Shown here: one piece after another, positions 6,609-60,340 of the stretch
Layout: each line of letters opens with the position of its first letter
Position numbering within the stretch: the first letter of the stretch is position 1
DNA from: Escherichia coli
GTDB taxonomy: Bacteria; Pseudomonadota; Gammaproteobacteria; Enterobacterales; Enterobacteriaceae
Assembly (NCBI RefSeq): GCF_044324785.1
Contig: NZ_CP172127.1
Direction: 5' to 3' (one strand)
Length of the DNA: 64,000 nucleotides
Notes under the pieces: generated by a model
Told to the model about the DNA's origin: nothing
What the model saw: the letters and a program-made list of their open reading frames with translations, nothing else
Database searches by the model: none
Position numbers and translations under genes: made by a program

Positions 6609-7928
6609 ATGCCATTAATCATTATTGCGGCAGGCGTCGCGCTGCTTCTTATCCTGATGATCGGCTTTAAAGTTAACGGCTTTATTGCCCTCGTTCTGGT
6701 AGCTGCCGTCGTCGGATTTGCCGAAGGGATGGATGCACAGGCCGTCCTGCACTCTATACAAAATGGTATCGGCAGCACGCTCGGCGGGCTGGCAATGATC
6801 CTCGGTTTCGGGGCCATGTTAGGCAAGCTGATTTCTGATACGGGTGCGGCACAACGTATCGCCACTACGCTGATTGCTACTTTTGGTAAAAAACGCGTGC
6901 AATGGGCGCTAGTGATCACCGGTCTGGTTGTGGGCCTCGCCATGTTTTTTGAAGTGGGTTTTGTCCTGCTGTTGCCGTTGGTATTTACCATCGTAGCATC
7001 ATCAGGATTACCCCTGTTGTATGTTGGCGTACCAATGGTAGCAGCGCTCTCTGTAACCCACTGTTTTCTGCCGCCACATCCAGGGCCTACTGCCATCGCG
7101 ACTATCTTTGAGGCTAATCTCGGAACGACTTTACTGTATGGATTTATCATTACCATTCCGACAGTTATTGTCGCAGGACCGCTGTTTTCTAAACTGCTAA
7201 CTCGCTTTGAGAAAGCACCACCGGAAGGCTTATTTAATCCTCATCTGTTTAGCGAAGAGGAGATGCCCTCTTTCTGGAACAGTATTTTCGCTGCCGTGAT
7301 CCCGGTCATCCTGATGGCTATCGCCGCCGTTTGTGAAATTACGTTACCGAAAACTAACACCGTGCGCCTCTTCTTTGAATTTGTCGGTAACCCTGCCGTT
7401 GCGCTGTTTATTGCCATTGTTATTGCGATTTTCACACTGGGCCGACGTAATGGACGCACCATCGAGCAAATCATGGATATCATTGGGGATTCTATAGGCG
7501 CTATCGCGATGATTGTGTTTATTATCGCTGGCGGCGGCGCGTTTAAGCAGGTATTAGTAGATAGCGGTGTCGGGCACTATATTTCACACTTAATGACAGG
7601 AACTACGCTTTCGCCGTTATTGATGTGCTGGACTGTTGCGGCGCTGTTGCGTATCGCTCTGGGCTCTGCCACCGTCGCGGCCATTACCACCGCGGGTGTG
7701 GTGTTGCCGATTATCAACGTTACCCATGCCGATCCCGCTTTAATGGTACTGGCAACCGGTGCGGGCAGCGTGATCGCGTCACACGTAAACGACCCTGGCT
7801 TCTGGCTATTTAAAGGGTATTTTAATCTGACGGTTGGTGAAACGTTGCGTACCTGGACGGTGATGGAAACCCTTATTTCTATTATGGGTTTGCTGGGCGT
7901 GTTAGCCATTAACGCCGTATTGCACTGA
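6609..7928 (+). CDS. idnT: L-idonate/gluconate:H+ transporter (GntP family)
   Basis: 439 aa polytopic membrane protein. Confidence 0.92.
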   Translation: MPLIIIAAGVALLLILMIGFKVNGFIALVLVAAVVGFAEGMDAQAVLHSIQNGIGSTLGGLAMILGFGAMLGKLISDTGAAQRIATTLIATFGKKRVQWALVITGLVVGLAMFFEVGFVLLLPLVFTIVASSGLPLLYVGVPMVAALSVTHCFLPPHPGPTAIATIFEANLGTTLLYGFIITIPTVIVAGPLFSKLLTRFEKAPPEGLFNPHLFSEEEMPSFWNSIFAAVIPVILMAIAAVCEITLPKTNTVRLFFEFVGNPAVALFIAIVIAIFTLGRRNGRTIEQIMDIIGDSIGAIAMIVFIIAGGGAFKQVLVDSGVGHYISHLMTGTTLSPLLMCWTVAALLRIALGSATVAAITTAGVVLPIINVTHADPALMVLATGAGSVIASHVNDPGFWLFKGYFNLTVGETLRTWTVMETLISIMGLLGVLAINAVLH

Positions 7929-7994
7929 AAGAATAAAATATTGTGATGTAGTTTCGGGGGAAGATTGAAGATTCCCCCGACGTTGGGAGAAGTT

Positions 7995-8993
7995 ATGCGC
8001 AATCACAGAATTTCTTTACAGGATATCGCTACGCTGGCTGGCGTAACAAAAATGACCGTGAGTCGTTATATCCGCTCGCCGAAAAAGGTGGCAAAGGAAA
8101 CAGGCGAGCGCATCGCCAAAATTATGGAAGAGATCAATTATATCCCTAATCGCGCTCCCGGCATGTTGTTGAATGCACAAAGTTATACCCTCGGTATCTT
8201 GATTCCGTCATTTCAAAATCAACTCTTCGCTGACATTCTCGCGGGAATAGAATCCGTCACCTCTGAGCATAATTATCAGACCCTTATTGCTAATTACAAT
8301 TACGATCGCGATTCCGAAGAAGAGTCGGTGATTAACCTGCTCTCTTATAACATTGACGGGATTATACTTTCGGAAAAATATCACACCATCAGGACGGTGA
8401 AATTTCTGCGTTCAGCCACCATTCCGGTCGTGGAATTGATGGATGTACAGGGAGAACGGCTGGATATGGAGGTCGGTTTTGATAATCGGCAGGCCGCTTT
8501 TGACATGGTGTGTACCATGCTGGAGAAGCGAGTCAGGCACAAAATTCTGTATCTCGGTTCCAAAGATGACACCCGCGATGAACAGCGTTATCAGGGGTAT
8601 TGCGATGCGATGATGCTGCATAATCTTTCCCCATTACGCATGAATCCACGCGCCATCTCATCCATTCATTTAGGAATGCAGTTAATGCGTGATGCCCTTA
8701 GCGCAAACCCGGATTTAGACGGTGTATTTTGCACCAATGACGATATTGCGATGGGTGCGCTTCTGCTGTGCCGCGAGCGAAACCTCGCCGTGCCAGAACA
8801 AATTTCCATTGCGGGTTTTCATGGGCTGGAGATTGGCAGGCAAATGATCCCAAGCCTCGCCAGCGTAATTACTCCCCGTTTTGATATTGGTCGGATGGCC
8901 GCCCAAATGTTGCTGAGCAAAATTAAAAATAACGATCACAACCACAACACTGTTGACCTCGGGTATCAGATTTATCACGGCAACACGCTTTAG
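7995..8993 (+). CDS. idnR: LacI-family transcriptional regulator of idn operon
   Basis: ORF 7965..8993; start at [12 protein letters not shown] with RBS; N-terminal HTH. Confidence 0.9.
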
Positions 8994-9070
8994 GTTATTT
9001 TCTCTTCATTACACGTATTCTCTTTGCCGGACGTTGCCTATACTCCAGGCAGGAAACTGGAGGATATCTC

Positions 9071-10573
9071 ATGAGCGAACCCCTGTTAATTGCCCGCACG
9101 TCGGACACAGAACTGTTTTTACTGCCGGGAATGGCGAATCGTCACGGGCTGATTACTGGCGCAACGGGGACGGGTAAAACCGTTACGCTGCAAAAGCTGG
9201 CGGAGTCATTGTCGGAAATCGGTGTTCCGGTGTTTATGGCCGATGTGAAAGGTGATTTAACGGGAGTTGCGGAGGGAGGTACATCTTCGGAAAAACTGCT
9301 CGCAAGGCTTAAAAATATCGGCGTAAATGACTGGCAACCTCATGCTAATCCGGTGGTGGTGTGGGATATCTTTGGCGAGAAAGGCCATCCGGTGCGGGCG
9401 ACGGTTTCGGATCTGGGGCCGCTGTTGCTGGCGCGACTGTTGAATCTCAACGATGTGCAATCTGGCGTGCTGAATATTATCTTTCGTATTGCTGATGATC
9501 AGGGGCTGTTACTGCTCGACTTTAAAGATTTGCGGGCGATTACCCAGTACATCGGCGATAACGCCAAATCCTTCCAGAATCAGTACGGTAATATCAGTAG
9601 CGCATCGGTTGGTGCCATCCAGCGCGGGCTGTTATCGCTGGAACAGCAAGGCGCGGCGCACTTTTTTGGTGAGCCGATGCTGGATATCAAAGACTGGATG
9701 CGTACCGATACCAACGGTAAAGGCGTTATCAATATCCTCAGCGCCGAGAAGCTTTATCAGATGCCGAAACTGTACGCCGCCAGCCTGCTGTGGATGCTTT
9801 CAGAGTTGTATGAACAATTGCCGGAAGCGGGCGATCTGGAGAAACCAAAACTGGTGTTTTTCTTCGACGAGGCGCATCTGCTGTTTAATGACGCACCGCA
9901 GGTACTGCTGGATAAGATTGAGCAGGTGATAAGGCTTATCCGCTCGAAAGGCGTGGGCGTCTGGTTCGTTTCGCAAAACCCGTCAGATATTCCGGATAAC
10001 GTGCTCGGGCAGCTCGGTAATCGCGTTCAGCACGCTTTGCGGGCTTTTACGCCAAAAGATCAGAAAGCAGTGAAGGCAGCGGCGCAAACCATGCGGGCCA
10101 ATCCGGCATTTGATACCGAAAAGGCAATCCAGGAACTGGGGACCGGCGAGGCGTTGATCTCGTTTCTCGATGCGAAAGGAAGCCCTTCAGTGGTGGAACG
10201 GGCGATGGTGATTGCCCCCTGTTCACGAATGGGGCCGGTGACGGAAGATGAGCGTAATGGCTTGATTAATCACTCTCCGGTGTATGGCAAGTACGAGGAT
10301 GACGTGAACCGGGAATCCGCCTATGAGATGTTGCAAAAAGGCTTTCAGGCCAGTACCGAGCAGCAAAATAATCCTCCCGCGAAAGGGAAAGAGGTGGCGG
10401 TGGATGACGGTATTCTTGGTGGATTGAAGGATATTTTGTTTGGCACTACCGGACCACGCGGCGGGAAGAAAGATGGTGTGGTGCAAACAATGGCGAAAAG
10501 CGCCGCCCGCCAGGTGACGAATCAGATTGTGCGTGGGATGTTGGGGAGTTTGCTGGGGGGGAGAAAAAGATAA
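9071..10573 (+). CDS. yjgR: P-loop NTPase of unknown function (DUF853 family)
   Basis: 500 aa; Walker A GATGTGKT and Walker [10 protein letters not shown] seen. Confidence 0.88.
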
Positions 10574-10667
10574 GTCAGACGTGATCTGTGCCCCTCACCC
10601 TAACCCTCTCCCCAAAGGGGCAAGGGGACCGTTCGAACTCGTATTTGACTTTGTCAACAATAATAAA

Positions 10668-10683
10668 GGGAGCTTTCGCTCCC
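10668..10683. terminator. Short GC hairpin (GGGAGC-TTTC-GCTCCC) between convergent yjgR and lptG
   Basis: Seen directly; A/T-rich flanks. Confidence 0.45.
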
Positions 10684-10691
10684 TTGTTAGA

Positions 10692-11774
10692 TTACGATTT
10701 TCTCATTAACAGCCACAGGCTGATTAAGAAGAAGCTGGCGCTTGGCAACAGTGCGCCGATGATCGGCGGGATGCCATAAACCAACGTCAGCGGGCCGAAG
10801 ATCTGGTCCAGTACGTAGAAGACAAAACCGAAGCTGATACCGGTGACCACACGCACGCCCATCGGTACGCTACGCAGTGGGCCAAAGATGAACGACAGCG
10901 CCATCAACATCATCACCGCCACGGATAGCGGCTGGAAGATTTTGCTCCACATGTTGAGCTGATAACGTCCGGCATCCTGACCGCTCGACTTCAGATACTT
11001 CACATAGTTGTGCAAACCGCTGATAGAGAGTGCATCCGGGTCCAGCGCCACCACGCCCAGTTTGTCCGGCGTGAGGTTGGTTTTCCAGGTGCCGCTCACC
11101 GTCTGCGAACCGGTAATCTGTTTCGGATTGGTCAAATCAGATTCATCAACCTGCGACAGACGCCAGACTTTATGTTCCGGGTCAAACTTCGCGGTAGCGG
11201 CATAGCGTACGGATTGCAGACGACGATTCTCGTTAAAGGCATAAATGCTGATGCCACCTAACTCTTCGTCACCTTTAACCCGCTCAATGTAGACGAAGTT
11301 GTTGCCATCTTTCGCCCATAAGCCTTGCTGGGTAGAGAGCAACGAGCCGCCGTACATCGCCTGCGCACGGTAGTTACGCGCCATCTGTTCGCCCTGCGGC
11401 GCGACCCATTCGCCAATCGCCATCGTCAGCAAGACCAGCGGAATGGCGGTTTTCATCACCGACAGCGCAACCTGCATACGGGTAAAACCAGAAGCCTGCA
11501 TCACCACCAGTTCGCTGCGCTGCGCCAGCATCCCAAGACCAAGCAACGCCCCAAGCAGAGCCGCCATCGGGAAGAAGATTTGCACATCTTTCGGCACGCT
11601 CAGCAAGGTATACATTCCTGCGCCTAACGCGTCGTAACTCCCCTGCCCGGCTTTTTTCAGCTGATCGACAAACTTGATAATGCCCGACAGTGACACCAGC
11701 ATGAACAGCGTCATCATGATGGTGGTGAAAATAGTTTTACCGATATAGCGGTCAAGTACGCCAAAAGGTTGCAT
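10692..11774 (-). CDS. lptG: LPS export ABC transporter permease LptG
   Basis: ORF 10692..11777; start MQPFGVLDRYIGK (360 aa); overlaps the lptF stop. Confidence 0.92.
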   Translation of the reverse strand: MQPFGVLDRYIGKTIFTTIMMTLFMLVSLSGIIKFVDQLKKAGQGSYDALGAGMYTLLSVPKDVQIFFPMAALLGALLGLGMLAQRSELVVMQASGFTRMQVALSVMKTAIPLVLLTMAIGEWVAPQGEQMARNYRAQAMYGGSLLSTQQGLWAKDGNNFVYIERVKGDEELGGISIYAFNENRRLQSVRYAATAKFDPEHKVWRLSQVDESDLTNPKQITGSQTVSGTWKTNLTPDKLGVVALDPDALSISGLHNYVKYLKSSGQDAGRYQLNMWSKIFQPLSVAVMMLMALSFIFGPLRSVPMGVRVVTGISFGFVFYVLDQIFGPLTLVYGIPPIIGALLPSASFFLISLWLLMRKS

Positions 11775-59254: not shown

Positions 59255-59461
59255 TTAAGCCATCTCTGTTTGCAGACGCATAACCTGACGGTTAACTTCG
59301 GACATCACTGACAAATGCAGCTTATCCTTCACTTTTGGGATAAGAATCTTACCCTTATCAAATTCAAAAGCGCCAACGTCCTTGATGTATAACCGTCCAC
59401 GGAACAGGATCTTTACGTACTTCGCCACCTGAAGTGGGTTGTACCGTTGGAAAATTTTCAT
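59255..59461 (-). CDS. ytfK: Small DUF1107 protein
   Basis: ORF 59255..59527; start [11 protein letters not shown] (68 aa) with GGAGATAA RBS. Confidence 0.85.
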
Positions 59462-59785
59462 TGTTATCTCCTGCTGAGTATTACGCCTGTGCGGTGCCAC
59501 AATCGGCCCAACTATTATGAGGCGCAAATTTTAATGCTTAGTGACTATAGACTATCCGGGCAATGTTTCCACCGCGTATAACTTTTTTTACCTAAAGGTT
59601 ACAATTATTCAGAATTATCTTTTTACCGAAGCGCGGTCTTCAGTATAAGCATTCATTTTTCATATGATTTGTGCGCTTGACCGCAAACTGGCATCACACT
59701 TGCGGGAAATTCGATAAATAGCACATATGATTAAAACTCAGACCCAAGTGGTCGGATCACCTGCATATCATAAGAAGGAAACACC

Positions 59786-60340
59786 ATGACCCTACGCAAG
59801 ATTCTGGCACTCACCTGCCTGCTGTTGCCGATGATGGCTTCCGCACATCAGTTCGAAACCGGTCAGCGAGTGCCGCCGATTGGCATTACCGATCGTGGCG
59901 AGTTGGTGCTTGATAAAGATCAGTTTAGCTACAAAACCTGGAACAGCGCGCAGTTAGTGGGAAAAGTGCGAGTACTGCAACATATTGCTGGTCGCACCTC
60001 TGCAAAAGAGAAAAATGCGACGCTGATTGAAGCGATTAAATCAGCAAAGTTACCGCACGATCGTTACCAGACCACCACCATTGTTAACACCGACGACGCA
60101 ATTCCGGGTTCCGGCATGTTTGTGCGCAGCAGTCTGGAGAGTAATAAAAAGCTTTATCCCTGGTCGCAGTTTATTGTCGATAGCAATGGCGTCGCGCGCG
60201 GTGCCTGGCAGCTGGATGAAGAAAGTTCCGCTGTAGTGGTGCTGGATAAAGACGGTCGCGTGCAATGGGCCAAAGACGGGGCGCTCACACCGGAAGAGGT
60301 GCAGCAAGTGATGGACCTGCTGCAAAAGTTGCTCAAATAA
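59786..60340 (+). CDS. ytfJ: Periplasmic protein YtfJ (DUF1131)
   Basis: 184 aa with signal peptide. Confidence 0.88.
   Translation: MTLRKILALTCLLLPMMASAHQFETGQRVPPIGITDRGELVLDKDQFSYKTWNSAQLVGKVRVLQHIAGRTSAKEKNATLIEAIKSAKLPHDRYQTTTIVNTDDAIPGSGMFVRSSLESNKKLYPWSQFIVDSNGVARGAWQLDEESSAVVVLDKDGRVQWAKDGALTPEEVQQVMDLLQKLLK

Follow-up and report, generated by a model that had tools for sequence, protein, structure and literature searches.

YjgR is among the few near-universal core proteins of Escherichia coli that have an obvious motor fold but no assigned function. We analysed its gene in a 64,000-nucleotide stretch of E. coli DNA (contig NZ_CP172127.1), referred to below as the window, and report that the protein, a HerA-like ATPase, ends in a conserved, basic stretch, predicted to form an amphipathic helix, which quite likely tethers it to the membrane, an anchor role that we infer from the character of this tail. 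Members of the family occur in at least nine bacterial phyla and in several groups of phages. Gene and family are already known, and a structure of YjgR has been deposited; the present analysis adds systematic evidence pointing to a conserved membrane anchor at the C-terminus, which is amphipathic in cellular members and transmembrane (TM) in phage members, together with the lack of a conserved partner. An earlier note on this DNA had described a standalone P-loop ATPase of unknown function, distantly related to HerA and FtsK, and while that interpretation held, both the deposited structure (PDB entry 11kk) and the conserved tail, with its resemblance to membrane-targeting sequences, had been missed.

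The C-terminal region stands apart from the rest of the protein in the predicted structure. An AlphaFold2 model of the monomer, built on an alignment of 32 sequences (A1; the window protein plus 31 representatives at 39-58% identity), has a mean predicted local distance difference test score (pLDDT) of 87.8 and a predicted template modelling score (pTM) of 0.83; it is confident for residues 1-433, and pLDDT lies below 50 over residues 441-500, where a helix is predicted at 469-494 that is not packed against the core. The linker that precedes this helix is hypervariable among homologues both in length (about 30 to more than 250 residues) and in composition, with K, E, A and R abundant; from about residue 433 on the sequences diverge completely, and they come together again at the extreme C-terminus. 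There the tail follows a motif, ...(S)-h-G-R-x-h-G-R-x-h-x-R-G-[ILV]-[LFM]-G-[STG]-[LI]-(K/R)2-4, or in short ..GRxIxRG[ILV][LF]G[ST]L[KR][KR], and of the strictly full-length representatives 38 of 48 carry it. It was also found in 75 of the 76 full-length orthologues, from at least nine phyla, that were taken from genome loci. These came from a scan of one genome per species, which gave 80 loci, drawn from alpha-, beta- and gammaproteobacteria, Acidobacteria, Bacteroidota, Clostridia, Coriobacteriia, Spirochaetes and Armatimonadota.

In its physical character the tail resembles the membrane-targeting sequences of MinD and FtsA, with which it shares a position at the extreme C-terminus, a predicted helix, amphipathicity and a net positive charge. 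The Eisenberg hydrophobic moment of the tails is 0.75, against 0.45 for control windows (p=1e-23), and their last eight residues carry a mean net charge of +2.6. A HeliQuest-type D averages 1.65 in the tails (1.64 for the window tail) and 0.47 in the controls. The 'lipid-binding' line of 1.34 is exceeded by 91% of the tails and by 8% of the controls; by the same measure, the MinD and FtsA targeting sequences give 1.08-2.14. In STEPdb, YjgR is classed as peripheral to the inner membrane, and our literature search found no paper tying this class to the YjgR tail.

Some homologues carry a TM-like hydrophobic segment in place of the tail motif. This was the case for 9 of 150 cluster representatives, and one TM-tailed homologue was recovered as a complete open reading frame (ORF) in five independent contigs of 2-3 kilobases (kb). 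The same replacement by hydrophobic TM tail anchors was seen in four of five phage homologues, namely those of Klebsiella phage YMC16/01/N133 (gp59), Rhodobacter phages RcZahn (gp71) and RcSalem (gp87), and Rhizobium phage RHph_X2_30, and the copy in the Xanthomonas jumbo phage Xoo-sp13 retains 'MRGMLG' and a basic amphipathic end. The phage copies lie in early or DNA-metabolism regions, near genes for a primase, an RdgC-like protein, a Cas4 exonuclease, RuvC and a ligase.

The motor that precedes the tail is very probably an active ring ATPase of the FtsK-HerA/YjgR family. The FtsK-HerA superfamily was reportedly described by Iyer et al. in 2004, whose work is cited in PMC7766704. Its signature comprises Walker A, a Walker B of the form hhhhDE, D-x-(K/H)-G-(D/E) following strand 2, the sensor arginine of R-x-x-G and the conserved glutamine of the (S/T)Q-x-P strand, and these elements occur in 76-78 of 78 orthologues. 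The clear Walker A and Walker B/DEAH motifs that had been read earlier in the 500-residue protein are confirmed, and their conservation, on which the earlier note had let its reading depend, is nearly complete: the Walker A sequence GATGTGKT (residues 30-37) occurs in 76 of the 78 orthologous loci, the DVKGD motif in 77 and Walker B in all 78. An exhaustive HMMER search of representatives clustered at 50% identity returned 7750 proteins with E<=1e-3, of which 1669 reached E<=1e-30. Invariant positions in A1 are H25, G30, G33, G35, K36, E45, D58, K60, G61, D62, G105, Q130, G173, E252, P259, A268, F272, G294, D306, H321, G359, Y408 and E419; R24, D266, E267, H269, R291, S292, Q302 and, within the tail, R488 are conserved in at least 90% of sequences.

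When the A1 profile is aligned with Sulfolobus solfataricus HerA (4d2i), R24 falls on R142, K36 on K154 and DVKGD on DYHGE, and the stretch with the sensor arginine falls on GRKFGVGLTIVSQRP, which contains 'EGRKFG'. In HerA (4d2i), R142 is reported to be a trans-acting arginine finger and the arginine of 'EGRKFG' a phosphate sensor. In E. coli lysate, ATP stabilises peptides in and beside the YjgR P-loop (PELSA preprint, 10.1101/2025.04.28.650974). The PDB entry 11kk, titled 'HerA like helicase YjgR', contains six identical chains of 503 residues at about 98% identity to the window protein, and these six chains of one sequence suggest a hexameric assembly.

The closest structural relative of the YjgR model is HerA (4d2i; ranked figure 28.0), followed by the DndH/DptH C-domain (26.7), VirB4 (25.6), Deinococcus radiodurans HerA (22.8), TrwB (20.6) and FtsK (15.0). 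Foldseek gave an order of relatives that agrees with this ranking, and the two together therefore place YjgR in the HerA/VirB4/type IV coupling protein (T4CP) branch of the FtsK-HerA superfamily, which bears out the relatedness to HerA/FtsK-type ATPases that had been proposed. Between the P-loop strand and Walker B the model has an alpha-helical insertion whose helices (112-123, 128-143, 151-163, 165-172, 177-192 and 195-198) are predicted with pLDDT above 90. No HAS-barrel was found in YjgR, in which only two short strands precede the Walker A motif at residue 30, nor did Pfam return such a match; because the barrel is lacking and no NurA gene lies nearby, YjgR is not HerA proper.

The second result concerns partners. 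Genes around each locus were called with a three-periodic model trained on the yjgR homologue of that locus, which recovered yjgR in 78 of 82 loci as well as the known genes of the window, and all locus proteins were clustered into neighbour families. No recurrent partner emerged across the 78 loci: the most frequent neighbour families reached at most 15 of them, and neither NurA, Mre11/Rad50 or another nuclease nor type IV secretion system (T4SS) or other secretion-system genes were found near yjgR in any of them. The neighbours that do recur are lineage-restricted and mostly on the opposite strand (purD, yebC, upp, an M20 peptidase and methylmalonyl-CoA mutase); in 51 of 73 loci the gene upstream is divergent, and most of the genes directly beside yjgR are singletons. 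The standalone state of yjgR, proposed earlier from the absence of an obvious partner in the window, is thus well supported among orthologues at 51-93% identity.

We propose that YjgR would act as a catalytically competent hexameric ring ATPase, working without an operon partner, in which a flexible linker of variable length would join the motor to the C-terminal amphipathic helix and this helix would hold the ring at the cytoplasmic face of the inner membrane, in a motor-linker-anchor layout that amounts to an 'inverted FtsK'. Hydrolysis of ATP at the subunit interfaces, with K36, D266/E267, R24 in trans and R291, would thread a polymer through the pore and move it, and by analogy with the well-studied close structural relatives this polymer might most probably be DNA lying at the membrane. 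Taken as a whole, a membrane-tethered hexameric translocase, probably on DNA, is an explanation in which our confidence is evenly balanced. DNA as the substrate, taken by itself, is a speculative and tentative assignment by analogy; we favour it because the proteins closest to YjgR in structure translocate DNA or belong to DNA-transfer systems, because the depositors of 11kk name the protein a helicase, and because the phage copies sit among genes of DNA metabolism. It seems unlikely to us that the family forms a widespread, previously unrecognised class of C-terminally anchored 'inverted FtsK' DNA pumps at the inner membrane, and equally doubtful that, within such a class, cellular members would use an amphipathic tail and phage members a true TM anchor. 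If such a class did exist, its members might serve in the intake or clearing of DNA in stationary phase, for example as a nutrient, and the phage members might handle the entering or replicating genome at the membrane. Should the tail be a membrane anchor, an orphan core ATPase becomes experimentally tractable, and a standalone, peripherally tethered member is added to the membrane-associated polymer pumps of the FtsK/HerA/T4CP group.

Several points weigh against this account. STEPdb carries the label 'cytoplasmic' for YjgR too, and no yjgR entry was found in the supplements of the Peptidisc and Min inner-membrane proteomes. With a value of 0.34 on the Fauchere-Pliska scale, the tail has only a moderate hydrophobic moment, its high D being driven mostly by charge, and an Arg/Gly-rich peptide binding nucleic acid or a partner would fit the sequence of the tail almost as well. 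Soluble domains replace the tail in some homologues, with TerD in P0143 and P0155, GYF_2 in P0241 and Ltp-like repeats in P0145, and the tail may be a generic adaptor module. As to the substrate, the relatives VirB4 and EccC act in protein or pilus systems and not on DNA. From the exchange of the tail for TM, TerD, GYF_2 and Ltp elements it follows that the C-terminus behaves as an exchangeable localisation or adaptor module. A placement of the Ltp repeats of P0145 outside the cell by way of a TM helix was rejected, there being no TM helix in P0145, and P0154, a DctP fusion, was set aside as an apparent chimera or frameshift. At the other end of the protein, P0131, P0165 and P0203 are extended at the N-terminus by about 120-180 residues of low-complexity or Ala/Glu-rich sequence.

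If the membrane association were incidental, YjgR could be a soluble HerA-type helicase of DNA repair or recombination, whose Arg/Gly-rich tail binds nucleic acid or recruits a nuclease or other partner. The PDB title and the 'cytoplasmic' label of STEPdb would fit, as would the recombination genes near the phage copies and the strong positive charge of the tail (z about +4), in which Arg and Gly recur at regular intervals; we nevertheless consider this unlikely, since the HAS-barrel is absent (P-loop from residue 30, no Pfam match), no NurA or other nuclease gene neighbours yjgR in the 78 loci, metagenomic and phage homologues with TM segments in place of the tail are difficult to reconcile with DNA binding by the tail, and STEPdb also assigns the peripheral-membrane class. 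The tethering evidence that supports the membrane-tethered DNA translocase would serve equally for a membrane-associated motor with a non-DNA substrate, engaged in extraction or translocation of proteins or peptides in the manner of VirB4 or EccC, or in the remodelling of membrane complexes. In range-expansion lines, loss of yjgR function by mutation is linked to increased colony size (bioRxiv 355404), a hint that the protein has a housekeeping activity that comes at a cost. Such a motor is nonetheless rather improbable, given that VirB4 and EccC never act alone, that secretion-system genes lie near none of the 78 loci and that the phage setting is one of DNA metabolism.

A role as a single-gene anti-phage defence ATPase, akin to the HerA of SIR2-HerA, DUF4297-HerA, Dnd and MADS systems, is the least likely of the rivals and in our view highly improbable, because yjgR is core, syntenic, without a partner and flanked by housekeeping genes. 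In its favour are weak PADLOC matches (mad8, 68.8 bits, 1.4e-19; HerA models down to 3e-13), a structural resemblance to the HerAs of defence systems and to DndH-C, and the fusion of one homologue to Ltp-like repeats; in the MADS preprint the domains of Mad8 are not described. Set against these are a single-copy, syntenic chromosomal gene present in 5425 of 5426 E. coli genomes, the absence of an effector partner, and neighbours that are housekeeping genes and not defence islands. The family is moreover rare on real plasmids (31 of 72,556 PLSDB records, most of them chromosome-sized), its homologues are encoded by phages themselves, and the defence models score at about one tenth of PF05872. 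NCBIfam HerA_antiphage reaches 17-18 bits against cutoffs of 800-850.

Table 1. Features of yjgR and its surroundings in the window, with the places of the phage homologues in their own loci
Feature	Position	Strand	Basis
yjgR coding sequence	9071..10573	+	ORF list; full-length PF05872 match; ~98% identity to PDB 11kk_A
R24-H25 (predicted trans arginine finger) through Walker A G30-T37 (K36)	9140..9181	+	Conservation; alignment to 4d2i
D58-V-K60-G61-D62, counterpart of HerA 'DxHGE'	9242..9256	+	Aligns with 'FDYHGE' of 4d2i
Alpha-helical insertion, ~residues 112-215, between P-loop strand and Walker B	9404..9715	+	AlphaFold2 helices
Walker B VFFFDEAH, residues 262-269	9854..9877	+	78/78 orthologues
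R291-S-K-G...S-Q302-N-P, sensor arginine and conserved glutamine	9941..9976	+	Aligns with EGRKFGVGLTIVSQRP of HerA 4d2i
Low-complexity disordered linker, residues 434-468	10370..10474	+	pLDDT <50 from residue 441; extra segment in proteobacteria
C-terminal basic amphipathic helix, residues 469-500, proposed membrane-targeting sequence	10475..10570	+	AlphaFold2; motif conservation
Conserved 5' region	9033..9070	+	Alignment A2: same in E. coli VCSW5, near-same in Citrobacter werkmanii
GC-rich hairpin between yjgR and lptG	10666..10685		Terminator scan
Phage homologues	L086:4935-6431; L087:4956-6305; L088:5001-6365; L089:3878-5089; L090:3956-5209		

The yjgR ORF of the window (Table 1) is intact, with an ATG start, 500 codons and a TAA stop, and it is a real conserved gene, a chance ORF being excluded. 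Membership of the DUF853 family, as claimed before, is confirmed by a full-length match to PF05872 (HerA_C, formerly DUF853) that covers residues 5-500 on profile positions 3-502 of 502 (E=9.8e-253; 839.7 bits, gathering cutoff 22); the remaining Pfam matches are all weak P-loop ones, and a scan with NCBIfam gave no model at cutoff, the top one being CedD at 48.6 bits against 600. The E. coli member of the family is P39342, and orthology to K-12 yjgR is indicated by the RefSeq annotation, the near-identity to 11kk and the same lptG-lptF-pepA-holC-valS gene order. That 11kk is missing from the Foldseek PDB set ending 2026-04-08 marks it as a very recent entry, and our literature search found neither a paper describing it nor a functional study of yjgR, with only incidental mentions of DUF853.

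The description of yjgR as a core gene proved accurate: a single copy per genome, annotated as yjgR in RefSeq, is present in all but one of 5426 complete E. coli genomes. The window copy has a nucleotide identity of 90-95% to most of them (4335 of 5425) and of 98.5% to the soil isolate VCSW5, a pattern from which it follows that the window comes from a divergent Escherichia lineage. Protein identity is 97-99% where nucleotide identity is 90-95%, and yjgR is therefore under purifying selection. A near-identical yjgR (97.8% at the amino acid level) occurs on a few E. coli plasmids, for example at 59375-60865 of NZ_AP023207.1 (93.8 kb), and the complete E. coli genome collection contains three plasmid places for the gene.

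Upstream of yjgR in the window are idnT (6609-7928) and idnR (7965-8993), and downstream are lptG and lptF, convergent on yjgR. The position beside the idn operon, which had been mentioned earlier, is true of the window but incidental, since in E. coli VCSW5 and Citrobacter werkmanii ahr and not the idn genes lies upstream. In an alignment of the upstream regions of these two genomes and the window (A2), homology starts only at 9033 (GTTGCCTATACTCCAGG...GGAGG...ATG) and the DNA beyond is unrelated, which makes the idn (GntII) segment a variable insertion; it meets the conserved yjgR leader (junction region 9027-9044) immediately ahead of a -10-like CTATACT at 9038-9044. The conserved region also holds a GGAGG ribosome-binding site at 9059-9063, 7 nucleotides ahead of the ATG. 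No canonical sigma-70 promoter was called on the plus strand upstream of yjgR, and CTATACT may be a sigma-S-like -10 element, given the C at -13. Such an element fits the published rise of yjgR by log2 +2.24 as O157:H7 Sakai enters stationary phase (PMC2241611), and expression of the gene appears to increase at that stage.

The hairpin between yjgR and lptG is likely a terminator shared by the two convergent genes. A box C-like repeat (CCTCACCCTAACCCTCTCCCC...) at 10593-10629, the sole copy within the 64-kb window, stands ahead of this hairpin, and Rfam gave no match over 8800-10900. Genomic systematic evolution of ligands by exponential enrichment (SELEX) placed binding of RpoE (intensity 9.4) and RpoH (4.1) holoenzymes within yjgR (PMC5493296), and the SELEX site, at 4486746 of E. 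coli K-12, is near the 3' end of the gene, between lptG and idnR. The yjgR mRNA is also among the transcripts processed by MazF (PMC5001579). None of the SELEX, MazF and colony-size reports defines the function of YjgR.

Compared with known systems, the protein agrees in every substantial respect with the YjgR family (PF05872, P39342, 11kk), which it matches over the full length including the tail and in the same place beside lptG/lptF. It differs from HerA-NurA (4d2i, 7wrx), to which identity is about 17-19%, in having neither an N-terminal HAS-barrel nor a NurA partner or operon, and in the additional disordered linker and amphipathic C-terminal tail. Unlike TrwB/VirD4 and VirB4, it lacks an N-terminal TM domain and T4SS or relaxase neighbours and is encoded by a chromosomal core gene and not by a plasmid; the NCBIfam VirB4, TraC and TraD models reach 15-32 bits against cutoffs above 500. 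SIR2-HerA, DUF4297-HerA, DndH/DptH, Mad8 and CedB/CedD of the Sulfolobales have the fold of the ATPase core in common with YjgR, and CedD and CedB are membrane-anchored too and act in DNA import. The defence HerAs and CedB/CedD depend on dedicated operon partners that YjgR does not have, and their models score far below cutoff; as a core gene with no partner in 78 loci, yjgR shows neither the operon effector or partner nor the variable defence island of a defence system.

The closest parallels in overall layout are found elsewhere. FtsK/SpoIIIE belong to the same superfamily and likewise combine a hexameric motor with a long low-complexity linker and a membrane anchor, and YjgR has none of their N-terminal polytopic membrane domain, Pfam FtsK_SpoIIIE match above cutoff or gamma winged helix-turn-helix domain. 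The targeting sequences of MinD and FtsA belong to proteins unrelated to YjgR, and MinD ends in ..KKGFLKRLFGG, compared with which the YjgR motif is longer, Arg/Gly-rich and of a four-residue (h-G-R-x) period. Like the YjgR tail, these targeting sequences are short, basic, amphipathic C-terminal helices that follow a flexible segment, with comparable values of D and of the hydrophobic moment.

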